From a virus (Duplodnaviria > Heunggongvirae > Uroviricota > Caudoviricetes): a DNA stretch of 41,015 nt. Both the position numbers and the translations under genes were made by a program. The stretch lies in IMG/VR virus record IMGVR_UViG_2537561977_000014; one strand, 5' to 3'. Each line of letters starts with the position of its first letter. Within the stretch, counting starts at the first letter, position 1. The notes under the pieces are model-generated. The model was not told where the DNA came from. It worked only from the letters and a program-made list of their open reading frames with translations, and did no database searches. Of the stretch, positions 6,191-39,342 are shown in pieces.

Positions 6191-6511
6191 CTAAACTCTG
6201 ATCAATCGTCTGAACAGTAACTGTTTAATATCCTGACGTTGGGAAAGAATCACGTGTGCAGTGATAATATCCTCCTCGACAGAGTACAGCACTCTGTAGC
6301 CTTCTGGTGTGTTGCACTCTCTGTATTTAGCCACGCCAAGCTTGAGCAACTCCGGGCATAACTGACATCCGGACGGGAATGCAGTAACTCTTGTTTCAAA
6401 TCGCTCAAGAATTTCTGCTATTACAGGGCGTGGGTCAATGTCGTTACTCCGGAGATGGTCGGCAATTTGCTCAAGGCTTGTTCTGGCGGTAAGTGTGTAT
6501 TCAACCTGCAT
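6191..6511 (-). CDS. Type II toxin, RelE/ParE superfamily
   Basis: ~106 aa with C-terminal ..EGYRVLYSVEEDIITAHVILSQRQD.. signature; immediately downstream of a Phd/YefM-like ORF. Confidence 0.7.
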   Translation of the reverse strand: MQVEYTLTARTSLEQIADHLRSNDIDPRPVIAEILERFETRVTAFPSGCQLCPELLKLGVAKYRECNTPEGYRVLYSVEEDIITAHVILSQRQDIKQLLFRRLIRV

Positions 6512-8836: not shown

Positions 8837-9244
8837 TTATTTGTTTGCGCTTCTTTTGCGAGCTTTGAGTAGTTCTTCAAAAAGTTTGTTGAAATTTTCA
8901 ACTCGAGCACGCATCTCTGACAACAGGGCCTTTTGCTCTGACTCAGGCAGTGCGTCGAACAGTTGAAGTAACTCTTTTTGATCTTCTGTCAGAATGGCTG
9001 GCTGATTATCCGGGATCGGTTCGCCTGGTTGTTTATCTTCATCCCCAAAAAGAAGCCAAGTCGGTGAGCACTGAAGCGCTTGGCTCAGTGCGAATAATCT
9101 TTTCCCCGCCGGCTGTGTTTCATCTCTTTCCCATTGAGAAATTGTTACGTGAGCCACTTTGACCAGCTTACCTAATGCGGCCTGAGACAGTTTTAATTTT
9201 TTACGCCTATGTAAGAGGCGAGCACCGAAGGTTTCGTTTTTCAT
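8837..9244 (-). CDS. dicA: Prophage repressor, DicA-like (HTH_XRE)
   Basis: 135 aa; ..QAALGKLVKVAHVTISQWERDETQPAGKRLFALSQALQCSPTWLLFGDEDKQP..MRARVENFNKLFEELLKARKR closely resembles E. coli DicA; divergent from a DicC-like gene. Confidence 0.85.
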   Translation of the reverse strand: MKNETFGARLLHRRKKLKLSQAALGKLVKVAHVTISQWERDETQPAGKRLFALSQALQCSPTWLLFGDEDKQPGEPIPDNQPAILTEDQKELLQLFDALPESEQKALLSEMRARVENFNKLFEELLKARKRSANK

Positions 9245-9264
9245 ATTAGGGAATTCTAATTTTT

Positions 9265-9311
9265 CTTGACTTAGGTTTCTCTACGATCTAGTTTCCTTAG
9301 GAAAATCTAAG
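9265..9311 (+). promoter_or_regulatory. Divergent promoter/operator region between dicA and dicC
   Basis: TTGACT at 9265-9270; palindrome CCTTAGGAAAATCTAAGG at 9294-9311 overlapping the RBS of dicC. Confidence 0.4.
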
Positions 9312-9320
9312 GAGCTCGAT

Positions 9321-9548
9321 ATGTTGAAAATTGATGCTATAGCGTTTTTTGGCAGCAAAACAAAGCTTGCCAATGCCGCAGGAGTTAGGCTGGCAAGCAT
9401 TGCTGCATGGGGGGAACTGGTTCCTGAAGGTCGCGCGATGCGCCTGCAAGAGGCATCTGGCGGGGAACTTCAGTACGACCCCAAAGTTTATGACGAATAT
9501 CGTAAGGCAAAACGACCTGGGAAGGTGATTCATGAAAATCAGGCATGA
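9321..9548 (+). CDS. dicC: Cro-like regulator, DicC-like
   Basis: 75 aa; MLKIDAIAFFGSKTKLANAAGVRLASIAAWGELVPEGRAMRLQEASGGELQYDPKVYDEYRK resembles E. coli DicC. Confidence 0.8.
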   Translation: MLKIDAIAFFGSKTKLANAAGVRLASIAAWGELVPEGRAMRLQEASGGELQYDPKVYDEYRKAKRPGKVIHENQA

Positions 9549-12565: not shown

Positions 12566-13252
12566 ATGACCCCAATAAACATATTTATGACAGTTGCTGA
12601 TTTCAAACGGCCCAAATTGGAGCTCCCAAACGGGGCAAACAAACTACTACTGCACTCTTGCTGTGCTCCATGTTCCGGTGAGGTGATGGAGGCGCTTCAG
12701 GCCTCGGGAATCGACTACACCATCTTTTTCTACAACCCGAACATTCATCCTCAGAAAGAGTATTTAATTCGTAAGGATGAGAATATTCGCTTTGCTGAAC
12801 AACACGGCGTGCCGTTTATTGATGCTGATTACGACACAGACAACTGGTTTGAACGAGCCAAAGGAATGGAATGGGAGCCCGAACGAGGGATCCGTTGCAC
12901 CATGTGTTTTGACATGCGTTTTGAGCGGACAGCGCTGTACGCCGCTGAAAATGGTTTCAGTGTGATCAGCAGTTCACTGGGCATTTCACGCTGGAAAAAT
13001 ATGCAGCAGGTTAACGACTGTGGGCGGCGAGCCGTCGCGCATTATCCGGGCATGGTGTACTGGGATTATAACTGGCGCAAGCAGGGCGGCTCGTCCCGTA
13101 TGATTGAAATCAGCAAGCGCGAAAAATTCTATCAGCAGGAATATTGTGGCTGTGTGTATTCTCTGCGCGATACCAATCTACACCGCAAATCTCAGGGACG
13201 CCCTCTTATCAAAATTGGTCAACTCCACTACGGTAAAGAAGAGAAGGAGTGA
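12566..13252 (+). CDS. Epoxyqueuosine reductase QueH-like (DUF208)
   Basis: Conserved [11 protein letters not shown] motif plus CTMCFDMR and EYCGCV Cys clusters typical of QueH/DUF208. Confidence 0.7.
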
Positions 13253-15095: not shown

Positions 15096-15650
15096 ATGAT
15101 TTACCCAACGAATACAGGAAAAAGCGGAGAACACCTTCGTCTCACCACGCTGGAAAGTGTCTGGATTCAGGGAAAACTACGTATGTGGGGGCGCTGGTCG
15201 TATATTGGTGGCGGTAAGACGGGGAATATGTTTAACCTGATGTTGACCTCTAAAAAGCTGACAAAAACGGCAATTAACGAGGCGCTCCGGAGGATGAAAA
15301 AAGCAGGTCTGAACAAGTCTGAACTTGAGGCTTTTTTGCGGGATATGATTAACGGTAAGCAAAAGAGCTGGCTGGCGCATTGTACTGATGCAGAGGCGTT
15401 ATGTATTGATCGGGTCATAAGTGAGGTGCTGGCAGAGCATCTAGGATTGATTAGCGTCCTTCGGCAACGGTATGAGGGGCGGGGGATGACCAAACGCAAA
15501 ATGGCTGAACTGCTGAATGATGCACACCCGAAATGGAGTTTAAGAACCTGTGAAAGACGCATTGAGCATTGGCTAAAGGTGGCAGAATTTATTTTGTACA
15601 AACCAATGGTTATGGCTTTTGGTATAGAGAAAAAAGTTATTGCTTTTTGA
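15096..15650 (+). CDS. Putative late-gene antiterminator (Q-like) by position
   Basis: 184 aa ORF immediately upstream of a strong terminator, tRNA cluster and lysis cassette; assignment positional. Confidence 0.45.
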   Translation: MIYPTNTGKSGEHLRLTTLESVWIQGKLRMWGRWSYIGGGKTGNMFNLMLTSKKLTKTAINEALRRMKKAGLNKSELEAFLRDMINGKQKSWLAHCTDAEALCIDRVISEVLAEHLGLISVLRQRYEGRGMTKRKMAELLNDAHPKWSLRTCERRIEHWLKVAEFILYKPMVMAFGIEKKVIAF

Positions 15651-16441: not shown

Positions 16442-16657
16442 ATGAAATCCATGGACAAAATTTCAACGGGCATTGCCTACGGCACCTCCGCCGGCAGTGC
16501 CGGCTACTGGTTTTTGCAGTGGTTGGATCAGGTCAGTCCATCACAGTGGGCTGCGATTGGTGTGCTGGGAAGTCTGCTTCTGGGGCTTCTGACTTATCTG
16601 ACGAATCTGTATTTCAAAATAAGAGAAGATAAGCGTAAGGCTGCGAGAGGTGAATAA
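16442..16657 (+). CDS. Holin, phage-21 S-type (pinholin)
   Basis: [71 protein letters not shown]; two TM segments; RBS GAGG upstream. Confidence 0.85.
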
Positions 16658-17154
16658 TGTCGCCATCATTACGCAAGGCTGTTGCAGTTGCTATTGGTGG
16701 CGGGGCTGTTGCTATAGCATCTGTGTTAATCACTGGCCCAAGTGGTAACGATGGTCTGGAAGGTGTCAGCTACATACCATACAAAGATATCATTGGTGTA
16801 TGGACTGTATGTCACGGACACACCGGAAAAGACATCATGCCTAGTAAAACGTATACCGAAGCAGAATGCAAAGCTCTCCTGAATAAAGACCTTGCCACTG
16901 TCGCCAGACAAATTAACCCGTACATCAAAGTCGATATACCGGAAACAACGCGCGGCGCTCTTTACTCGTTCGTTTACAACGTGGGCGCTGGCAATTTCAG
17001 AACATCGACGCTTCTTCGCAAAATAAACCAGGGCGATATCAAAGGCGCATGTGACCAGCTACGTCGCTGGACATATGCTGGCGGTAAGCAATGGAAAGGG
17101 CTGATGACCCGTCGTGAGATTGAGCGTGAAGTCTGTTTGTGGGGGCAGCAATGA
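16657..17154 (+). CDS. SAR endolysin (lysozyme-like, signal-anchor-release type)
   Basis: N-terminal Gly/Ala-rich weakly hydrophobic segment then lysozyme-like domain; start overlaps holin stop. Confidence 0.8.
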
Positions 17155-17621
17155 GCAGAGTCACCGCGATTATCTCCGCTCTGGTTATCTGCATCATCGT
17201 CTGCCTGTCATGGGCTGTTAATCATTACCGTGATAACGCCATTACCTACAAAGAGCAGCGCGACAAAAACGCAAGAGAACTGAAGCTGGCGAACGCAACC
17301 ATTACTGACATGCAGCAGCGCCAGCGTGCTGCTGATGCACTCGATGCTAAATACACGAAGGAGTTAGCCAATGCGAAAGCTGAAAATGATGCTCTTCGGC
17401 GCAAGCTTGATAATGGTGGTTGGGTGCTCGTCAAAGGAAAATGCCCTGTGCCATCCTCAGCCGAAACCTCCAGCGCCTCCGGCATGGGCAATGATGCCAC
17501 CGTCGAACTCTCTCCAGTTGCTGGACGAAACGTTCTCGGTATCCGGGACGGAATCATCAGCGACCAGACAGCATTGAGAATGCTTCAGGAGTACATCAGG
17601 ATCCAATGCCTTGGGGGGTAG
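17139..17621 (+). CDS. Rz (i-spanin)
   Basis: N-terminal TM segment then coiled-coil periplasmic domain; directly after endolysin. Confidence 0.75.
17371..17577 (+). CDS. Rz1 (o-spanin lipoprotein) embedded in the +1 frame of Rz
   Basis: Signal peptide with lipobox VVGC, proline-rich mature region; fully nested in Rz. Confidence 0.7.
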
Positions 17622-29655: not shown

Positions 29656-31608
29656 ATGAACGCCGAGACTATTAAAGATTTCCTCGTCTCGCTTGGCTTC
29701 AGTGTGGATGATGCAGGAGCGAAAAAGTTCGGTTCTGTCCTCGCCGGTACAACTGCAAATGTCATCAAAATGGGGCTGGCTGTTGAAGGAGCTGCGCTGT
29801 CCGTGGTGGCCTTCACGGCTAAGATCGCCTCCGGTCTGGATAATCTTTACTGGGCGTCACAGCGCACCGGCGCGACAGTCCAGGGAATTCAGTCTATTGG
29901 CTATGCGGTTTCGCAGGTTGGCGGCAGCGTGGACGCTGCGCGATCTTCTCTGGAAAGCCTCTCCCGGTTTATTCGTAACAATCCCGGTGCAGAAGGCTTT
30001 CTGAATCGCCTGGGCGTACAGACCCGTGATGCCAGCGGTAACATGCGTGACATGGCCGCTATTTTTACTGGTGTAGGCCAGAAGCTCAGCGGTATGCCGT
30101 ATTACCGGGCTAACCAGTATGCGCAGATGCTGGGCATTGACGAAAATACCCTTATGGCTATGCGTCGCGGAGTGGGGCAGTTCAGCGCTCAGTATTCAGA
30201 AATGGTGAAAGCGATCGGATTTAATGCCGATCAGGCTGCCTTATCGTCAAACCGGTTTATGACCTCGCTGAAATCGCTCGGTGAAATGGCCGGGATGGCG
30301 CGGGACAAAATCGGATCGAATCTTGCGGACGGACTGGCGGGGCAGATTGATAACCTGCGCAAAAAGATAATTGAAAATTTTCCCAAAATTGAAGTCACCA
30401 TCACAAAGGTCATAAAGGGGATCCTCTGGCTGGGTGAGATAGTCGGGCGGGGTGCATTCCGGATAGTCGATGGTGTCGGAGATATCATCGAGTGGTGGGG
30501 GAAACTGGATGCCGAAACGAAAACCCTGATAGAGGTTATCGGCGGTCTGGTTGTCGCCATGCGGATACTTAACTCTACTTTCTGGATGTCACCTATAGGG
30601 CTGATTACCGGTCTGATCGTGGCTCTCGGTCTCTTGTGGGAAGACTACAAAACATGGAAAGAAGGCGGTAACAGTCTTATCGACTGGGAAAAATGGCAAC
30701 CAGCAATAGATAAAGCGAAGGATGCGATCACCTAGCTTCGTGATCACCTTCTGGAACTAAAAGATGGTGTTGGCGGCTGGCAAAATGCACTGGAAATCCT
30801 CGGTACATTCATCGCGGGTGTCTGGGTATCCAAGGTTCTGGGGGCTTTCGGGAAAATATCAGGTTTGCTGGTCCCGCCGTGGTTAAAAGGCTGGATGGCT
30901 TATGCTGCGTATTTGTACTCTGATCGCGAAAATATTGGTGCCAGTGCGAAGTCATCCTGGGATTACACGAAACAAAATATTGGAGATTCATTGCGCTGGC
31001 TTGGCATTGATACCGATTTTGGTCGTAATCCTCATACCGTAAAAGGCGCAAATATTCAGTCAGATATTCCAGGTGCTGAGCCGGAACAACATGCGCAGTC
31101 TACGAAGCGTACTTTAGCCGATCGGAATAACAATCCAGGGAATATTCGCCCGGTGAGCGGTAAAGGGTTCCGGTTTTTCGAATCAGCTCTTGAGGGCTGG
31201 GAGGCGATGAAAAACCAGCTCATGCGTTACTTTACCGGGAAAACAACCGGACGGGCATTACAGACTATTCAGGATATTGTCAGTACCTGGGCCCCGGCAG
31301 GTGATAACAACGATCCGAAAAAGTATGCACAGGATGTTGCGAAATGGATGGGAGTATCACCGAATGCAATATTGAATCTTACAGATCCCCGGACTATGGG
31401 AGCATTGATGCAGTCGATGGCGCGCAAAGAAGGTTATTCAAACTGGAACAGCCCGCTGGCGTATCAGGCCGCCGCTGGCAACCTTAACCAGCAGACTGTT
31501 ATAAATGTTCATGGAGTTAACAACCCTCAGGAGGCGGCTAATCTGATCGCTGACAAGCAGGGGGCTGTAAATGCCAGGGCGGTACAGCAATTGAAAGGAC
31601 CTGCGTAA
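29656..31608 (+). pseudogene. Tail tape measure protein interrupted by an in-frame amber (TAG) codon at 30733-30735
   Basis: ORFs 29656-30735 and 30865-31608 are in the same frame, separated only by TAG; sense sequence resumes immediately (..DAIT*LRDHLLELKDGVGGWQNALEILG..) with no ATG/RBS for the distal part. Confidence 0.65.
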
Positions 31609-32258
31609 TGGACTTTTTATCTGTTTTACTGCAGCAGCGAACCCGCTCAATAGGAATCATTATTCCTGATGTGGTTATTACCGAAAAGCACACTGACGCC
31701 TTGGAAATTACGGAACATCCGGTTGAACAGCCCACGAATGCTGGTGCCAGTGGTGAGGGCGCTGGTTACATATCAGAACACGCATTCAGGCGCCCTTCTG
31801 AGGTTGTGATGGAAACCGGTTTTTCCGGAGGCGGATCGCTGCTTGATTTTGCCAGTAACCTGACTGCTACCAGTTTACTGGGGCTGAGCCCGAAAGAACT
31901 GTATCAGGAACTGCTTAACCTGCAGCGGAATCGTATTCCTTTCGATGTGACAACCGGCAAGCGTATTTACAACAATATGTTGATAAAAACGCTGGAGGTC
32001 ACGACCGATAAGAGTAGTGAAAATGTGCTTCTGGCGACACTTACCCTCAGGGAAGTAATTATTACCTCCACGCAGTCAGTCAGGGTTGCCCCGAAAAACA
32101 ATATGACCGAGGGAGTCGGAACGTCTGCTGTGCAGAATACAGGCACCAAAACAACGGTGCCGCCGAATAATTCCATTCTGAAATCGCTGCCACAGATGGC
32201 GCAAGAAGGTATCTCCACTGTTGATGGGTATTTGAGCAATTTATTTCTGGGAAGGTGA
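31608..32258 (+). CDS. Tail/baseplate protein (putative)
   Basis: ORF overlapping the tape-measure stop. Confidence 0.45.
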   Translation: MDFLSVLLQQRTRSIGIIIPDVVITEKHTDALEITEHPVEQPTNAGASGEGAGYISEHAFRRPSEVVMETGFSGGGSLLDFASNLTATSLLGLSPKELYQELLNLQRNRIPFDVTTGKRIYNNMLIKTLEVTTDKSSENVLLATLTLREVIITSTQSVRVAPKNNMTEGVGTSAVQNTGTKTTVPPNNSILKSLPQMAQEGISTVDGYLSNLFLGR

Positions 32259-32261
32259 TTC

Positions 32262-32564
32262 ATGAAAGCCGTAGAAATCCCACTGGTTGCTGACAATCAG
32301 ACTTTTGCCACCACAATTAACGGTTCGGTTTATCACCTGTCTGTCATCTGGCGAGGCGAGTGCTGGGTTCTGGATCTTGCTGACAGCAATGGCTCCGCCA
32401 TTATATCAGGTATACCGATGATTACGGGGGCTGACCTGCTGGCACAGTATCGATATATGGATCTGGGTTTTTCTCTGGTGGTGCTCTGCGACGTGGCAGG
32501 GCAGGAGAATCCGACGCAATTCGATCTTGGAACGCTCTCACACCTCTATGTTTTCACGGAGTAA
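32262..32564 (+). CDS. Small tail/baseplate-associated protein (putative)
   Basis: 100 aa ORF in the tail module. Confidence 0.4.
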   Translation: MKAVEIPLVADNQTFATTINGSVYHLSVIWRGECWVLDLADSNGSAIISGIPMITGADLLAQYRYMDLGFSLVVLCDVAGQENPTQFDLGTLSHLYVFTE

Positions 32565-32566
32565 CA

Positions 32567-33607
32567 ATGTCGAAAAACTGGATGCGTCACTTTGAATTAT
32601 TGCTTGTTGATGATAAGGGCGACGGGATAAAAATTTCTGAGCTTAAAGTCACTTTCAATATTCAGAAAATGCCTGCGACCATATTTAATGGATTTGTTGG
32701 AAATTTTAAGGTTTATAACCTGTCTCCTACCACTCAGAACCGGATTATGCAGAAGGAGTTTTCGCGTATACAGGTTATTGCCGGATACAAGGGGCAACCG
32801 GATGCAGCAGGTAATTATCCTGATGAAAACGTTGGTATGATATTCAACGGAGATATCCGTTTTACTGTCACTGGTAAAGATAATGCCACAGACAGTTGGA
32901 TCATGTTGCAGTGTATTGACAGCTGGGAAGGCCACCTGAACGCAAGTGTGAAAACCACAGTGGCTGCTGGCTGGAAGTACAGCGATCTTTTCAGTCTGGG
33001 TATGAAATCATTCGAACCATATGGCATCGAATCCGGTGCAGTTCCTGACATGCCTGAAACGGTATTTCCCCGAGGTCGCGTTGTTTATCAAAACACATCA
33101 AGGTTGATGAATCATATCGCAGGGCAGTGTAAAGCTAACTGGTGGTATGAAAATAATCTGGTAAATATTGTTCCTGAAGATAAATATATTGGTGTTGCTA
33201 CGGTGTTGAATGCTAACACCGGGCTTATCAGTATGCCACAGCAGACGATGGGAGCTGGCGTAAATGTCAGATGTCTGATTAATCCAAATATTAAGCTCGG
33301 TGGGCTTATTCGTCTGGATCAGGCATCTGTATACCGTGCCTCTTTGAGTAATGACCAGGTGGCGAAATCGCCAGCACGACTGGATGAGTCTGAAAGCGAC
33401 GGTAATCTCTACGTTAACGGTCTGCCAGGCATGTCACAGCCTGCCAGCATTAATACTGACGGTGATTACATTGTGGGCAGCATTGATTATACTGGCGACA
33501 CCCGAGGGCAGGCGTGGTATATGGACCTGCTTTGCCTGGCTAAAGGGAGTAAAAGTTTACTCACTCCTGATACGATAGCGAAAATAAGTGGGGTACCAAA
33601 TGCTTAA
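32567..33607 (+). CDS. Baseplate protein (putative)
   Basis: 346 aa ORF; last structural gene before AT-rich cargo and IS1. Confidence 0.5.
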   Translation: MSKNWMRHFELLLVDDKGDGIKISELKVTFNIQKMPATIFNGFVGNFKVYNLSPTTQNRIMQKEFSRIQVIAGYKGQPDAAGNYPDENVGMIFNGDIRFTVTGKDNATDSWIMLQCIDSWEGHLNASVKTTVAAGWKYSDLFSLGMKSFEPYGIESGAVPDMPETVFPRGRVVYQNTSRLMNHIAGQCKANWWYENNLVNIVPEDKYIGVATVLNANTGLISMPQQTMGAGVNVRCLINPNIKLGGLIRLDQASVYRASLSNDQVAKSPARLDESESDGNLYVNGLPGMSQPASINTDGDYIVGSIDYTGDTRGQAWYMDLLCLAKGSKSLLTPDTIAKISGVPNA

Positions 33608-33842
33608 ATGGATCTTATTACTGGTATATTTTGTGACTTTGTCTTCTGTGGCTGCGGTAACATGCACCACTTCAAATACAGGAACAACTTACTGTACTGG
33701 TACAGACAGTAGTGGTTCTACAGTTAAAACAGAATCTTATACAACCAATACAGGTACTACGTATACCACAGGAACGATTAATGGGAGTGCAGTACATCGT
33801 GAATGCCAGGCGACCAATACTGGCACAACGTACTGTAATTAA
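33600..33842 (+). CDS. Small secreted Cys-containing protein with NTGTTY(C/T)TGT tandem repeats
   Basis: Signal peptide MLKWILLLVYFVTLSSVAA; mature part has three NTGTTY repeats and four Cys; AT-rich. Confidence 0.5.
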   Translation: MLKWILLLVYFVTLSSVAAVTCTTSNTGTTYCTGTDSSGSTVKTESYTTNTGTTYTTGTINGSAVHRECQATNTGTTYCN

Positions 33843-33877
33843 TTTTTTTAAGAAATCAGCTATAAGAGACATTTGTA

Positions 33878-34219
33878 ATGAAGAAAATATTCCTTCTCGC
33901 AGTGTTGACTCCAACAATTTGTGTAGGTGGAACGCTGAATGATTTTTTTGGACTGCACACCTCACTGGCTGATAACTACATCATCAAGAGAGAGATCACA
34001 AATAGGGCTGTTTCTAATGCGGCTATGGACGCTGTATCTAATGGTCGTGAGGCGGATTTTGGTGATGAGTTAATGAAAGAACATGGTGATAGTTATGGTG
34101 AAATAGCTCTGCGTCAACTCGCTTTCGAGTGCGGTTATTCTTTTTCCGATAGTGGCCAATCTCTTACGATTCTAAAAAAAGAAGAATGTAGATTGGTGCT
34201 ATCTGAAAATAAGAAATGA
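33878..34219 (+). CDS. Small secreted protein of unknown function
   Basis: N-terminal signal peptide MKKIFLLAVLTPTICVGG; AT-rich; followed by a terminator. Confidence 0.5.
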   Translation: MKKIFLLAVLTPTICVGGTLNDFFGLHTSLADNYIIKREITNRAVSNAAMDAVSNGREADFGDELMKEHGDSYGEIALRQLAFECGYSFSDSGQSLTILKKEECRLVLSENKK

Positions 34220-34282
34220 GTTCGCTAAATTAACTTTTCACGGTAATTGCTTCTATCACCATGGAAAGAAAACTAGCTACAT

Positions 34283-34308
34283 AAAACCCGCCTTCGAGTG
34301 GGTTTTTT
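34283..34308 (+). terminator. Rho-independent terminator after the secreted-protein genes
   Basis: AAAACCC-(10 nt loop)-GGGTTTT followed by TT. Confidence 0.45.
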
Positions 34309-34383
34309 GCTTTCTGGAGGCATATGAAGGTAATGCTGCCAACTTACTGATTTAGTGTATGATGGTGATTTTAAGGTGCTTGC

Positions 34384-34683
34384 GTGGCTTCCATTTCCAT
34401 CAGATGTCCTTCCTGCTCCGCTACTGAAGGCGTGGTGCGTAACGGCAAAAGCACTGCCGGACATCAGCGCTATCTCTGCTCTCATTGCCGTAAAACATGG
34501 CAACTACAGTTCACTTACACCGCCTCTCAGCCCGGTACGCACCAGAAAATCATTGATATGGCCATGAATGGCGTCGGATGTCGCGCCAGTGCACGCATTA
34601 TGGGCGTTGGCCTCAACACGGTTTTACGTCACTTAAAAACTCAGGCCGCAGTCGGTAACCTCGCGCATACAACCGGGCAGTGA
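34384..34683 (+). CDS. insA: IS1 InsA (zinc-finger DNA-binding protein); variant 3' end because the frameshift-window A-run is A5
   Basis: [85 protein letters not shown].. matches IS1 InsA; A-run at 34635-34639 has five A. Confidence 0.85.
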
Positions 34684-34684
34684 T

Positions 34685-35080
34685 GTGATTGTCTGCGCTG
34701 AAATGGACGAACAGTGGGGCTACGTCGGTGCTAAATCACGTCAGCGCTGGCTGTTTTACGCGTATGACAGGATACGGAGGACGGTTGTGGCGCACGTCTT
34801 CGGTGAACGCACTCTGGCCACACTGGAGCGTCTTCTGAGCCTGCTGTCGGCCTTTGAGGTCGTGGTATGGATGACGGATGGCTGGCCGCTGTATGAATCA
34901 CGCCTGAAGGGAAAGCTGCACGTTATCAGCAAGCGTTACACTCAGCGCATTGAGCGACATAATCTGAATCTGAGACAACATCTGGCAAGGCTGGGACGGA
35001 AGTCACTGTCGTTCTCAAAATCGGTGGAGCTGCATGACAAGGTCATCGGGCATTATCTGAACATAAAACACTATCAGTAA
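34685..35080 (+). CDS. insB: IS1 InsB (transposase catalytic part)
   Basis: Translation matches IS1 InsB; identical to the partial copy at the window start. Confidence 0.85.
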
Positions 35081-35096
35081 GTTGGAGTCATTACCG

Positions 35097-35582
35097 ACAA
35101 AACGATATTCGGTCACCTGGCTTTTTTCGGAAGACGACAAAAACTGGTATGAAGAACTGAAGAATTTCGCCAGCGACACAATAAAAATAGCTTACACCGG
35201 AGACGGTCGTGTGGTGTGGGTCGGTAAGGATGTGACAGGCATCGAGCCACGCAATGCCAGTGTTATTGAAGTTCCTGATATTACCGCTAACCGACGGATT
35301 ACCGCGCCGGGTTACTGGTTTTACCGCAATGATGAATTTGTCTTTGACTACAGACTCAAAGCGGAAGATGAGCGTGATGCCCTTCTGGCTCAGGTCAGTG
35401 CCCGGACAGGGGAATGGGAAGAAGACCTGCTGCTGGGGTTAATCAGCGACGAAGATAAAGAAAAGCTGAAAGCCTGTCGTATTTACGCGAAATCACTGCA
35501 GGCGATGGATTTCAGCGCCATCACTGATAAATCCTCATACAACGCCATTGAATGGCCCGTCTCTCCGGAAGGTTCTTCCTGA
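35097..35582 (+). pseudogene. tfa: Tail fiber assembly protein (Tfa) lacking its 5' end; reading frame begins at the IS1 boundary
   Basis: ..WLFSEDDKNWYEELKNFASDTIKIAY..VIEVPDITANRR..IEWPVSP resembles Tfa proteins; no native start codon. Confidence 0.6.
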
Positions 35583-35605
35583 TTTAATTTATCGCGAGAA
35601 AAACA

Positions 35606-36874
35606 ATGTCTGTAGTGATATCAGGTGCGCTGACTGATGGCGCAGGTATCCCCATGTCCGGATACCATATTATTCTGAAATCCCGGGTAAACACCCCGGA
35701 AGTGGTTATGCACACTGTTGCTGATGTGATGACAGGAAACGATGGTGAATACTGTTTCCATGCGCGGACTGGAAAATATGGTGTGTATCTGAAACAGGAC
35801 TGGCGCAACGAGTACAACGTTGGCGACATTGCTGTATATGAGGACTCAAAGCCCGGCACGCTGAATGACTTTCTGATTGCTCCTGATGAGGGCGACCTGA
35901 AACCGGATGTCGTCAAACGCTTTGAGGAAATGGTGGCGCAGGCGCAGCAGAGCGCCGGGGCCGCAGCCGGAAACGCACAGCAGACGGCGCAGGATGTGGC
36001 GGCAGCCGCAGGTTATGCCCGCGCAGCAGAACAGGCCAAAAATGACATTGATGCTGCGCTGACCGGCACTCTGAAAACGGCTAACCATCTGTCTGAAATC
36101 GCAGCAGCAGGCGAAAAGGCACAACAGAAGTCCCGGGATAATCTGGGGCTGAAAAGTGCAGCCACGATGGAAGCACAGAGCGACATTTACGACCGGACAA
36201 AAGGCCGTCTGGCGATACCCGGCGCATTCGGCTTTGGGCGTGCTTTTCTGCCTGAAGATGTTATCCGTTTTGACACTAAGAGTGATTTCCTGGCCTGGGT
36301 AAGGAATGCGCTGCCAGGTGAATATTCCGTTGCTGGCCCCTACGACATCATCATACCCGACACACGGTTTGAAGGGGTGCTCAGCATCCGGTGGACTGAT
36401 GCACGCCCTGAGACAACAGAACCGAGGTACAGAGCCAAATCCCTTACTTTTTACGGCATTAACGGCCCCATTTATCACACCCGCTACTGCTACTGGCCCA
36501 TATCCAGACTGACTGGCTGGGTGAAAATAAATATAACCACAGAAGATATTATTTACAGAATCGTGGCGAGCTCTGTCCGCAACAGATGGGGAGACCCTGA
36601 CATTGGCGGGCTGATTATTGCTGCGTACCAGGGAGAAGCTGACGGTGATAAAGTCATCAGACTTGTCAGGGGGCAGTCATACAGAGGCTCACGACTGGGA
36701 CCGGTGGGGATTTCAGTGCCCAGTACTCCCACCGGAACGTATATAGCATCCCCACAATTTTTCATTACGGGATGTTCAGAGCATTCATTACCGGGGTCAT
36801 ATTGCGCCCTGTCCGGGGTGCCGGATGCACATGTCTCTGGCGCAATGCCCGGGCTTTTTATTCGCACATCGTGA
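35606..36874 (+). CDS. Side tail fiber protein (lambda Stf-like N-terminal domain)
   Basis: N-terminus MSVVISGALTDGAGIPMSGYHIILKSRVNTPEVV..YGVYLKQDW..VYEDSKPGTLNDFL resembles the prophage tail-fibre N-terminal domain of lambda Stf. Confidence 0.8.
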   Translation: MSVVISGALTDGAGIPMSGYHIILKSRVNTPEVVMHTVADVMTGNDGEYCFHARTGKYGVYLKQDWRNEYNVGDIAVYEDSKPGTLNDFLIAPDEGDLKPDVVKRFEEMVAQAQQSAGAAAGNAQQTAQDVAAAAGYARAAEQAKNDIDAALTGTLKTANHLSEIAAAGEKAQQKSRDNLGLKSAATMEAQSDIYDRTKGRLAIPGAFGFGRAFLPEDVIRFDTKSDFLAWVRNALPGEYSVAGPYDIIIPDTRFEGVLSIRWTDARPETTEPRYRAKSLTFYGINGPIYHTRYCYWPISRLTGWVKINITTEDIIYRIVASSVRNRWGDPDIGGLIIAAYQGEADGDKVIRLVRGQSYRGSRLGPVGISVPSTPTGTYIASPQFFITGCSEHSLPGSYCALSGVPDAHVSGAMPGLFIRTS

Positions 36875-36884
36875 GGAATGCACC

Positions 36885-37447
36885 GTGGAAATTAAAAAAA
36901 TCATTAATCCCCGTTATACCGAAAGTGGCGCAGTAGACTGTGACGTTTTTTTGACGACAGGGACCAGGCAGTCCCCTACACAGCCACCGCTGATGATGTC
37001 GCTCCGACGGGTCAGCAAATCTGGCAGGAACTGCAAAGCGGCAAATGGGGTGAGATAGCCCCATTCACTGTGACACCAGAAATGCTGGAAGCGGCCAGAG
37101 AGGCCAGACGTCAGGAAATTGAAGCATGGCGCGCAGAACAGGAGGCGAAGCCGTTCACGTTTGAATGGAACGGTCGTATCTGGAATGCTGGTCCCGACTC
37201 ACTGGGCCGCCTGTCCCCGGTAGTCATGCTGGCAAAATCTGTCACAGCACAAACACATATGGCGTGGAGCGATGCCGATAATCAGCAGGTGAAACTGTCG
37301 ATGCCGGAACTGGAAGAACTGGCGGCAGCAATGGTGCAGGCGCAGGTCGATCGCAACGATGAGATTTATCGCCGTCAGCGGGAGATGAAAGAGGAGCTGA
37401 GCAGTCTGGATGATTTGGCTTCAATTCGGGCGTTTGACGTTAAGTAA
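36885..37447 (+). pseudogene. tfa: Tail fiber assembly protein (Tfa) with a frameshift in a T7 homopolymer (36946-36952)
   Basis: GTG 36885 after GAGGAA gives VEIKKIINPRYTESGAVDCDVF then shifts; family sequence continues in frame of ORF 37070-37447 (..YTATADDVAPTGQQIWQELQSGKWGEIAPFTVTPEMLEA..); one extra T would join them. Confidence 0.65.
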
Positions 37448-37561
37448 TGAATAAGCCGCAACTGGCGGAATCACAGAAGACCGCTTTGCTTACCGAGGCG
37501 GAGTCTGTCATCCGGCCGCCGGGGCGTGCGGTCAGGCTGAACAGGGAAACGGATGAATCCG

Positions 37562-37590
37562 GGGAGGCCCGGGGGCGGGCCTCTGTTTTT
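37562..37590 (+). terminator. Rho-independent terminator downstream of the tail fiber/tfa operon
   Basis: GGAGGCCCGGGGGCGGGCCTC hairpin followed by TGTTTTT. Confidence 0.55.
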
Positions 37591-37626
37591 CCGGAGTCAG
37601 TCCGGTCTGTGGTTTATGCGATGTGA

Positions 37627-39342
37627 TTATGAATGGTGCAGTTGTGAGCCGTTTTCAGGCAATCGCAGGGCCAGTACCTCGTCAGTCAGCTGACGGTAAA
37701 TCTGCTGTTCAGTCTCACGCATCACCTGTGCACCGGCTTCCCTCTCCGCATCCGCATCACCGCTCAGACCTGATGCTTTCAGCCGGTCAGCCACCCTCTG
37801 AGGGTACTCATTCTCCAGCATCTCATATTTCTGCTCTTCTGCCAGCGCCCAGCGGTCAGCTTCCGTACGCTTCAGTACAGCATGCCATGGTCCCCAGAGG
37901 GAGAACCAGTCCGTAAATTCATTCTCTTCACGGCTTCTGACCATGGCTTCGGCAGTGCGGAGGTCATTTGCTGTCACTCCCGACACGCCATAGAAACGCA
38001 TTTCCTTCACGGCAGTGGAGAGCTGAAGTTTCTCTGCGAGCATGGTCTGGAAGGCCAGGTAGACTTCTATCTCATCCACAAAATGGAGAGTTCTGACTTT
38101 ATCCCGGGCAATGTCCTCCAGAATTTCGAGGCGGAACATTTCCCTGCCCAGGGAGAGCAGAGCGCCGGTATCATTATCGAAAAGGCCTTCTGATGCCTGA
38201 TGGACCAGGAGGGTTTTCCGGAGATTGTTCCATGTGAGCGCGACACGGTCCTCACAGCTCTCAGTGGCATCAGCAGCAACAGTGAAAGACTGCTGTCGAA
38301 GCTCCGCAGAGGCACTGAGTTTTTCCAGCCATGCAGCGACCTGTTCACGGAATCCGGAGGTATTGCGTGCAGAGACGGTATCGGAAAGGCGGTCAAGGAA
38401 CGCGGAAAAGGTGTTGGCATGCTCTTCATGTTCAAAAGCATGCCATATCTGTGATACATCAGATTGTTTGTTTTCCGGGAACCATGCTGTCACGGCATCA
38501 GCCAGGGGGCGATGGAGTGTATTCTGTTGTCCGTCACTCATGGAGAAGTAAATCCGTGGGCCGTGGTAGTCCGGTTGGGCGGTTTGTTGCGACAGAGACT
38601 CCCTGATCCGTGAGGACAGAGGATTGTCTTCGAGGATGATAGTGCAGGTCGGATCAAGGCTAAGTATATTTTCCGGAATGTGTGTGATGCGATTCTCGCG
38701 GCACCGGAAAAATATCTCGGTTTCCTCTGAGTGATGATTTCTTACAGGTACGGCTGGTAGGCTTTCCAGAAGATTAGTACTTACATCGAGCGCTTCCAGT
38801 GATTCAGGTAACTCAGGGAGAAATGTCAGCTGGTTATTTCTTACTGAGAGCACTTCCAGCGATGTAGGTAATTCAGGAAGCATGGTTAGCTGATTGTTAT
38901 CTGCATTAATATATTCCAGCAATGCAGGCAATTCAGGAAGCATGGTTAGTTGGTTGTTATCTACATCAAGATGTTTCAGAGATGCGGGTAATTCAGGAAG
39001 TGTTGACAGGTGATTGTCACAGGCGTCAAGGTATTCCAGCGATGCTGGCAATTCTGGTAATGATATTAGGGCATTCTGAGTAATTTCCAGAACAGTGATT
39101 TGAGGTGGTAAGTTGTCAGGTAGCGAGGACAGATTTAAACGATTCAGTTGAAGCTCACTGAACTGATTGATGAGACATTCTTTAAGTAGGGAGACCGCTT
39201 CATTCCGATTTTCACCGGGGAGCGCTTGTTTTTCCCATTTATCCCATGCTGAAAAGTAATCAGCATATGTACCGGAAATAGTGTTATAAAAAGAATTTTG
39301 GGACAATGAAAAGTTATTATTTATCGGTAACATGATGGACAT
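37627..39342 (-). CDS. ipaH: IpaH-family type III secretion effector, novel E3 ubiquitin ligase (N-terminal LRR domain, C-terminal NEL domain)
   Basis: 571 aa; N-terminus MSIMLPINNNFSLSQNSFYNTISGTYADYFSAWDKWEKQALPGENRNEAVSLLKECLINQFSELQLNRLNLSSLPDNLPPQITVLEIT; tandem 20-residue LxxLPxLPxxLxxLxxxxNx repeats; NEL signature ..AADATESCEDRVALTWNNL.. with catalytic Cys. Confidence 0.9.
   Translation of the reverse strand: MSIMLPINNNFSLSQNSFYNTISGTYADYFSAWDKWEKQALPGENRNEAVSLLKECLINQFSELQLNRLNLSSLPDNLPPQITVLEITQNALISLPELPASLEYLDACDNHLSTLPELPASLKHLDVDNNQLTMLPELPALLEYINADNNQLTMLPELPTSLEVLSVRNNQLTFLPELPESLEALDVSTNLLESLPAVPVRNHHSEETEIFFRCRENRITHIPENILSLDPTCTIILEDNPLSSRIRESLSQQTAQPDYHGPRIYFSMSDGQQNTLHRPLADAVTAWFPENKQSDVSQIWHAFEHEEHANTFSAFLDRLSDTVSARNTSGFREQVAAWLEKLSASAELRQQSFTVAADATESCEDRVALTWNNLRKTLLVHQASEGLFDNDTGALLSLGREMFRLEILEDIARDKVRTLHFVDEIEVYLAFQTMLAEKLQLSTAVKEMRFYGVSGVTANDLRTAEAMVRSREENEFTDWFSLWGPWHAVLKRTEADRWALAEEQKYEMLENEYPQRVADRLKASGLSGDADAEREAGAQVMRETEQQIYRQLTDEVLALRLPENGSQLHHS

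Follow-up and report, generated by a model that had tools for sequence, protein, structure and literature searches.

Small exported-protein genes between hub and spike in SEN34/Mulock-like prophages: candidates for envelope-level phage exclusion

What might two small genes for exported proteins do among the baseplate genes of a temperate myophage? The question arises from a 41,015-nt stretch of viral DNA (Caudoviricetes; IMG/VR record IMGVR_UViG_2537561977_000014; hereafter the window), in which two open reading frames (ORFs) on the + strand lie between a baseplate hub gene and an IS1 element. ORF1 (33600-33842) encodes a predicted small exported protein with an 80-aa precursor, and ORF2 (33878-34219), which begins 35 nt past ORF1, encodes a predicted small, exported, mainly helical protein with a 113-aa precursor. 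The window's prophage is a temperate, SEN34/Mulock-like myophage whose regulatory region is lambdoid. A sequence-only reading of the window had described the pair as a two-gene cargo cassette for secreted proteins at the end of the tail module. We found that the genes occupy a slot between hub and spike genes whose contents differ among relatives, and we are highly confident of the anatomy of the locus as described below. Our leading but tentative explanation, which parallels known systems in its logic, is that ORF1 and ORF2 provide protection at the level of the envelope, namely, that in the periplasm they exclude incoming phages whose tails are of this kind.

Both ORFs were confirmed and both possess predicted Sec-type signal peptides, as the sequence-only reading had proposed. 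Signal peptides were scored by four rules: a positive n-region, an uncharged run of at least 9 residues, mean hydropathy and early position. ORF1 starts with MLK, followed by a 22-residue uncharged run and the site SVA|A, giving a predicted signal peptide of residues 1-18 (33600-33653) and a Thr-rich mature part of approximately 62 aa. ORF2 starts with MKK, followed by a 17-residue run and the site CVG|G, giving a predicted signal peptide of residues 1-17. Both cleavage sites, which have small residues at -3/-1, were set by the alignment of homologues. These features were present in 11 of 12 distinct members of the ORF1 family, 10 of 11 of the ORF2 family and 94 of 98 of a third family, phrog_3443, which is described below; as controls, we took seven cytoplasmic tail proteins encoded in the window, none of which passed the test. 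Among the homologues of ORF1 and ORF2, the signal features are kept although the sequence is not. The lipobox test was negative for ORF1, in which the first Cys lies four residues past the predicted cleavage site. We also considered ORF2 as a lipoprotein modified at Cys15 and rejected this, since PTIC, with Ile at -1, breaks the lipobox [LVI][ASTVI][GAS]C and the Cys is missing in homologues. The four Cys residues previously noticed in ORF1 (C22, C32, C69 and C79) were invariant in 10 homologues, and ORF2 possesses a conserved pair (C85 and C104). Signal peptides together with conserved Cys pairs would be expected of proteins folding in the oxidising periplasm, and, judged from its sequence, each ORF fits a Sec-exported, disulfide-bonded periplasmic protein.

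ORF1 and ORF2 are real genes under purifying selection, because their length, Cys residues and motifs are conserved at 45-55% identity and the ratio of nonsynonymous to synonymous change (dN/dS) is below 0.45. Where dS was measurable and synonymous change unsaturated, dN/dS was 0.13-0.31 for ORF1 and 0.33-0.43 for ORF2. The ORF1 family comprised about 10 clusters among 5.8 billion proteins, all of 77-80 aa and with 44-93% identity by BLASTP, and the exact ORF1 protein was absent from a collection of 15 billion proteins. ORF1 matched no PHROG, Pfam or NCBIfam family. Further, RefSeq calls ORF2 and skips ORF1 in every E. coli genome inspected (e.g., at 9201-9443 of locus L001 and 6201-6443 of locus L002). 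ORF2 matched phrog_13007 at 1.9e-38 (residues 1-113 against profile positions 1-116 of 116), and has 8 close relatives; from a profile search of 1.84 billion representatives, 21 clusters at 50% identity were obtained. Almost all members are 108-124 aa long and possess a signal peptide, an N-terminal G-T-[LIV]-[DN]-D-F-F motif and two conserved Cys residues. Full-length copies of the cassette were present in 6 of 5,426 complete E. coli genomes, and a tblastn search of 50,697 phage records returned nothing for either ORF. An RNA element was also considered and rejected, because an Rfam scan of the region gave no match near the gathering score.

The sequence-only reading had described tandem NTGTTY(C/T)TGT repeats in ORF1. 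Three copies of (S/T)NTGTTY(C/T) are present, at residues 25-32, 49-56 and 72-79; however, they are separated by 24 and 23 residues and are not tandem. Three T-x-TGTT-Y motifs are kept across the ORF1 relatives, in which the signal peptide varies in sequence and keeps its properties. In an AlphaFold2 (AF2) model of ORF1, with a predicted local distance difference test (pLDDT) score of 82.5 (approximately 90 in the mature part), the protein forms a six-strand beta-meander of three hairpins with an NTGT motif at each turn, and C22 faces C32 across hairpin 1 as C69 faces C79 across hairpin 3. On the + strand, copy 1 (NTGTTYC; 33675-33696) would encode the turn of hairpin 1, stapled by C22-C32; copy 2 (NTGTTYT; 33747-33768) that of the Cys-free middle hairpin; and copy 3 (NTGTTYC; 33816-33837) the turn of hairpin 3, stapled by C69-C79. 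ORF1 is thus modelled as three Thr-rich beta-hairpin repeats, the first and third of which are stapled by cross-strand Cys pairs. The AF2 model of ORF2 (pLDDT 75.6) has helices at residues 34-54 and 61-84 and an ill-defined C-terminal tail that bears the second Cys, and ORF2 is accordingly modelled as a helical hairpin to which a Cys tethers the tail. Two points have some novelty: the ORF1 family, which is unannotated and has stapled hairpin repeats, and the regular occurrence of an exported-protein gene right after the hub gene.

The position of the cassette proved to be different from that first proposed. The genes on its 5' side encode a Dit-like protein, a Pam3 gp18-type plug and an E217 gp41-type hub. 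The hub gene (32567-33607, + strand; 346 aa), assigned by Pfam E217_GP41 (3.4e-7), phrog_196 baseplate hub (7e-79) and synteny, bounds the slot on the left, and its final 8 nt overlap the start (ATG) of ORF1. The right border is an intrinsic-terminator-like hairpin with a 9-bp stem and a T-run (34283-34313, hairpin 34283-34306; + strand). Next to it is a remnant of the spike gene (34316-34328, + strand), consisting of the ribosome-binding site (GGAGG) and one base that, in L001, corresponds to the first position of the spike start codon as annotated. When the window was aligned to this intact E. coli genome, positions 31000-34328 corresponded to L001 6601-9929, ending at the first base of the annotated spike coding sequence, and positions 35096-38000 corresponded to L001 14228-17133. 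The junctions of IS1 (34329-35095, + strand; InsA and InsB frames; Pfam Zn_ribbon_InsA, HTH_Tnp_IS1 and DDE_Tnp_IS1) were defined by this alignment. IS1 replaced 4,298 bp of the intact prophage, from the first spike codon into the tail-fibre-assembly gene. The remainder of the spike gene, the genes for the sheath initiator, baseplate J and wedge, the tail-fibre remnants and the 5' end of the tail-fibre-assembly gene were lost. The right edge of the deletion is marked by the tail-fibre-assembly gene without its first 59 nt (35096-35582, + strand; Pfam Caudo_TAP; gene start at L001 14169). In E. coli genomes that possess the same cassette without IS1, the next genes encode a Gp138-type spike, a sheath initiator, baseplate J, a wedge and a tail fibre. 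The place of the cassette is thus amid the baseplate genes, between the hub and the Gp138-type spike, and it looks terminal in the window because IS1 replaced the adjoining 4,298 bp. IS1-borne or IS1-targeted cargo was likewise ruled out, as relatives have the same cassette and no IS1 there; its adjacency in the window is incidental.

We then compared the slot among relatives of the hub gene, using loci from species-representative genomes and viral contigs, in 150 of which the hub end and the spike start could be placed. The slot was empty in 9 loci, in which hub and spike genes abut or overlap (alpha-proteobacteria, Pseudescherichia and one Rosenbergiella), and the gap between them was 0.3-3.3 kb in the other 141. 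An exported-protein gene was first in the slot in 140 of these 141 loci (one locus was unclear). This first gene belonged to the phrog_3443 family in 116 loci, to the ORF1 family in 19 and to others in 5 (a lipoprotein family in 4 and another signal-peptide protein in 1), and in most loci it had an overlap of 1-8 nt with the hub stop codon. The phrog_3443-family protein (approximately 111 aa; profile match 7.4e-48) possesses a signal peptide and two Cys residues and is unrelated to ORF1. It is the only first-slot family present among sequenced phages, where it is annotated as hypothetical and once as 'putative exported protein'. No published function for the slot families came up when the literature was searched with accessions, PHROG numbers and phage names. 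A hairpin similar to that of the window (AACCCGC-loop-GCGGGTT and a T-run) occurred 5' of the spike gene in 103 of the 141 loci, regardless of the slot cargo. Thus, the cassette does have a terminator beside it, as previously described, but this is a lineage-wide element of the slot and not the cassette's own. Most of the lineage's Enterobacterales members have their tail and baseplate genes split by this hairpin in its conserved form.

ORF1 and ORF2 do not form a unit. ORF2-family genes were found in 18 loci, 11 with ORF1-led slots and 7 with phrog_3443-led slots, and were never first, being preceded by one or two other exported-protein genes. ORF1 occurred without ORF2 in 8 loci. We therefore rejected an obligate two-gene system, and with it the two-gene cassette of the sequence-only reading as a unit, and concluded that the ORF1 and ORF2 families are independent accessory genes in a recombination-prone slot. 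Further, the divergence of the hub and the content of the slot are uncoupled: in locus L015, the hub was 91% identical to that of the window, ORF1 58% and ORF2 26%, and in locus L003 the hub was 96% identical and the slot was filled by a different family. Every ORF1 homologue found was in the hub-spike slot, and ORF2 homologues were either there or at another place in a tail module of this type.

These results bear on the possibility that ORF1 and ORF2 are structural or assembly components of the baseplate, such as a hub-associated protein or a chaperone. Such a role would suit genes that lie between hub and spike, one of them translationally coupled to the hub, and a first position that is nearly universal in the Enterobacterales members of the lineage. 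However, signal peptides direct proteins out of the cytoplasm, where tails are assembled, hub and spike abut in 9 relatives with the same set of baseplate genes, and unrelated families are swapped beside nearly identical hubs. A tail-fibre chaperone or structural tail homologue, which the sequence-only reading had named as a finding that would count against it, was looked for in Pfam, NCBIfam, the structural categories of PHROGs and PDB sequences and was not found, and there was no similarity to solved baseplate components. We consider a structural role highly improbable. The proposal that the genes are cargo thus stands insofar as they are accessory and not structural, and falls insofar as it depended on IS1. 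Among the features by which morons are recognised in the Juhala/Hendrix sense of an extra transcription unit in a phage genome, presence or absence among relatives and a deviant base composition were both found. The G+C content of the cassette is 39.1%, whereas the window has 49.1% and the tail genes 49.4%, and only 2.9% of equal-sized stretches are this AT-rich, in agreement with the AT-richness reported earlier. A terminator is present as well, but it is that of the slot.

Other contents of the slot and its relatives were also recorded. A fourth small signal-peptide family (121-136 aa) lies beside ORF1 and ORF2 homologues (L010 6675-7040; L015 4780-5190), and its gene order differs between Cronobacter and Trabulsiella. 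Remote relatives of ORF2 lie at other insertion points of the same tail-module type, next to toxin-antitoxin genes. The slot of E. coli 5CRE51 (L003 3559-5110) contains two Arc-family genes and a P22 antirepressor-like gene, forming an immI-like region among the baseplate genes. A recurrent gene pair (L008 5225-6366; also L143, L159, L030, L043 and L055) encodes a protein of 243-273 aa and one of 123-142 aa with a conserved 'SRAYY..H' motif that looks HEPN-like. The L008 pair had no Pfam match, and to judge from their sequences the two genes may be a defence or toxin-antitoxin pair. A single chromosome, that of Pantoea stewartii ATCC 8199, has five separate prophages belonging to this tail lineage (L022, L047, L049, L052 and L061).

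The sequence-only reading likened the ORF1 product to a toxin or adhesin. The proteins might accordingly be morons for host fitness or virulence, that is, secreted toxin-, bacteriocin- or adhesin-like peptides directed against competitors or an animal host. They are indeed small, Cys-containing and exported, and the cassette is AT-rich, rare in complete E. coli genomes and carried by a prophage that also encodes a type III effector of the IpaH type. The effector gene, ipaH (37627-39342, - strand; LRR_TTSS and NEL E3 ligase domains), lies just past the tail-fibre genes; it is the element's real virulence cargo and suggests Shigella or enteroinvasive E. coli as the host. However, we found neither sequence nor fold evidence for the proposed likeness: Pfam, NCBIfam, PHROGs and PADLOC gave no toxin, bacteriocin, adhesin or defence family for either ORF (the only PADLOC match of ORF1, Cas5d at E=0.043, was spurious, and ORF2 had none). 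In a Gram-negative cell, a Sec signal takes a protein no farther than the periplasm, and there is no secretion system, immunity gene or double-glycine leader nearby. Further, the homologues are tied to this tail-module type and occupy the phage slot in Yokenella, Cronobacter, Pantoea, Trabulsiella and Hafnia, including plant-associated and environmental strains and non-pathogens. A role in virulence or competition is therefore improbable.

The state of the prophage raises another alternative, namely that the proteins are periplasmic and act in envelope stress or host physiology with no part in exclusion, or that the genes are functionless passengers in a decaying prophage. The window holds a defective prophage of Shigella/E. 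coli, with a nonsense codon in the tape-measure gene and a 4.3-kb deletion. The tape-measure/lytic-transglycosylase gene (29656-31608) has a premature stop at 30733-30735 (TGG to TAG, codon 360) when compared with a 99.9%-identical relative in which the gene is intact (651 codons), and the deletion from spike to fibre-assembly gene means that the window prophage cannot make tails. Many morons, moreover, act on host physiology (PMC3594210). However, purifying selection has acted on these genes across genera, and their strict link to this tail-module type argues for a role related to tails. We regard this explanation as rather doubtful.

We favour the reading that the periplasmic proteins encoded by ORF1 and ORF2 would hinder the penetration or DNA entry of incoming phages, that is, superinfection exclusion in the broad sense. 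An anti-phage role in the envelope is suggested because the genes are accessory, exported, interchangeable and tied to one type of contractile tail. Exclusion in particular is suggested because the slot is empty in distant relatives, is elsewhere led by interchangeable, non-homologous exported proteins and carries immunity- or defence-like cargo. Regarding expression, the start of ORF1 lies 8 nt inside the hub gene, so ORF1 is probably translated from the tail-operon mRNA. A Q-antiterminator-like gene in the window (15096-15650) suggests that late transcripts could pass the terminator of the slot, at which transcription of the slot in the prophage state would stop.

Several results weigh against exclusion. 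A promoter search detected no convincing promoter of the cassette's own; the sole match (33465-33493; 9/12) was at the frequency expected by chance and lies upstream of the exchanged module. Together with the overlap of the ORF1 start and the hub gene, which indicates translational coupling, this points to late expression and not to the expression in a repressed prophage that classical exclusion genes need. Neither ORF has homology to any characterised exclusion protein, and the fold search with ORF1 returned only generic beta-sheets. The signal peptides were assigned by simple rules. Further, five prophages of the lineage in one Pantoea stewartii genome mean that any exclusion must be narrow or weak.

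The main rival is that the proteins act late, in the periplasm, during the lytic cycle of the phage itself, for example in receptor masking or the inactivation of cell debris, in protecting the infected cell from lysis-from-without by the tails of sibling phages or in modulating lysis; the toxin or adhesin, structural and no-function readings are weaker. Late co-expression with the tail genes would follow from the overlap of the ORF1 start with the hub stop, which recurs as overlaps of 1-8 nt in most relatives, and the failure to find a separate promoter agrees with it. The conserved first-gene position over 140 loci would also suit a late function, and T5 Llp, which has been proposed to save progeny from loss to receptors or debris, provides a precedent (PMC9586334). 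However, the window already contains a complete lysis cassette elsewhere, including a lysozyme gene (16657-17154) and an Rz-type gene (17139-17621). Moreover, the first-slot families are interchangeable and non-homologous and the slot is empty in distant relatives, so that no fixed lytic step can depend on them. A late function also overlaps with exclusion, as the protein and its target could be the same and only the timing differ. We consider a late function of this kind somewhat unlikely, and envelope-level exclusion remains our preferred reading.

A bolder form of the exclusion reading is conceivable. The first gene after the hub (ORF1, phrog_3443 or a lipoprotein gene) might define a new class of periplasmic 'tail-immunity' proteins, which would be co-expressed with the baseplate and counteract the puncturing or peptidoglycan-cutting apparatus found in this lineage of contractile tails. 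ORF1 would then represent a new fold type, the Thr-rich beta-hairpin repeat stapled by disulfides, and ORF2 and the fourth exported family would be add-on specificities. We offer this as speculation that is probably incorrect in this full form. One further gene was noted in the early/regulatory region of the prophage, upstream of the Q-antiterminator-like gene: a full-length homologue of the epoxyqueuosine reductase QueH (12566-13252).

If the exclusion reading is correct, this temperate myophage lineage of Enterobacterales offers a fixed and recognisable position for envelope-acting anti-phage proteins. Its hosts include Escherichia/Shigella, Klebsiella, Salmonella, Pantoea and Serratia, among others, and several unrelated families of small proteins are on offer. 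Such proteins could then decide whether therapeutic phages succeed against lysogens of Klebsiella and E. coli. If the inference of exclusion is wrong, only two hypothetical exported proteins in a decayed prophage remain. For annotation, ORF1 is gained as a real small-protein gene that standard annotation skips.

Known phage proteins provide parallels for an envelope-level role. Spackle (gp61.3) of T4 is a periplasmic helical protein with 75 aa in its mature form and one disulfide, and inhibits the tail lysozyme gp5 (PMC7677548). Like ORF2, as predicted, it is small and phage-encoded, with an export signal (cleaved in Spackle), a mainly helical mature domain of less than 100 aa and one disulfide (PMC7677548). 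A target of the type on which Spackle acts would be available here, since the tape-measure gene of this lineage encodes a lytic-transglycosylase domain. In contrast to ORF1 and ORF2, Spackle is encoded by an early gene of a virulent phage outside the tail operon, and comparison with its structure (PDB 6X6O) revealed no sequence similarity or fold match to either.

HK97 gp15 resembles ORF1 and ORF2 in its genetic setting. It is encoded by a moron, an accessory gene inside the tail operon, and acts in the envelope to block DNA entry in a manner that depends on the incoming tail (PMC3594210). However, gp15 is an inner-membrane protein related to YebO with its own promoter and terminator, whereas ORF1 and ORF2 look like soluble periplasmic proteins for which no promoter was found and have no YebO match in Pfam. 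T5 Llp and phi80/N15 Cor are similarly small exported phage proteins, encoded next to genes for tails or receptor binding, and stop infection at the envelope (PMC9586334; PMC3594210). These are receptor-blocking lipoproteins, in contrast to ORF1 and ORF2, which have no lipobox and no sequence similarity to them. Spackle, HK97 gp15, Llp and Cor are therefore not relatives of ORF1 or ORF2; by analogy, they are precedents for the logic by which a phage may protect its host cell at the envelope.

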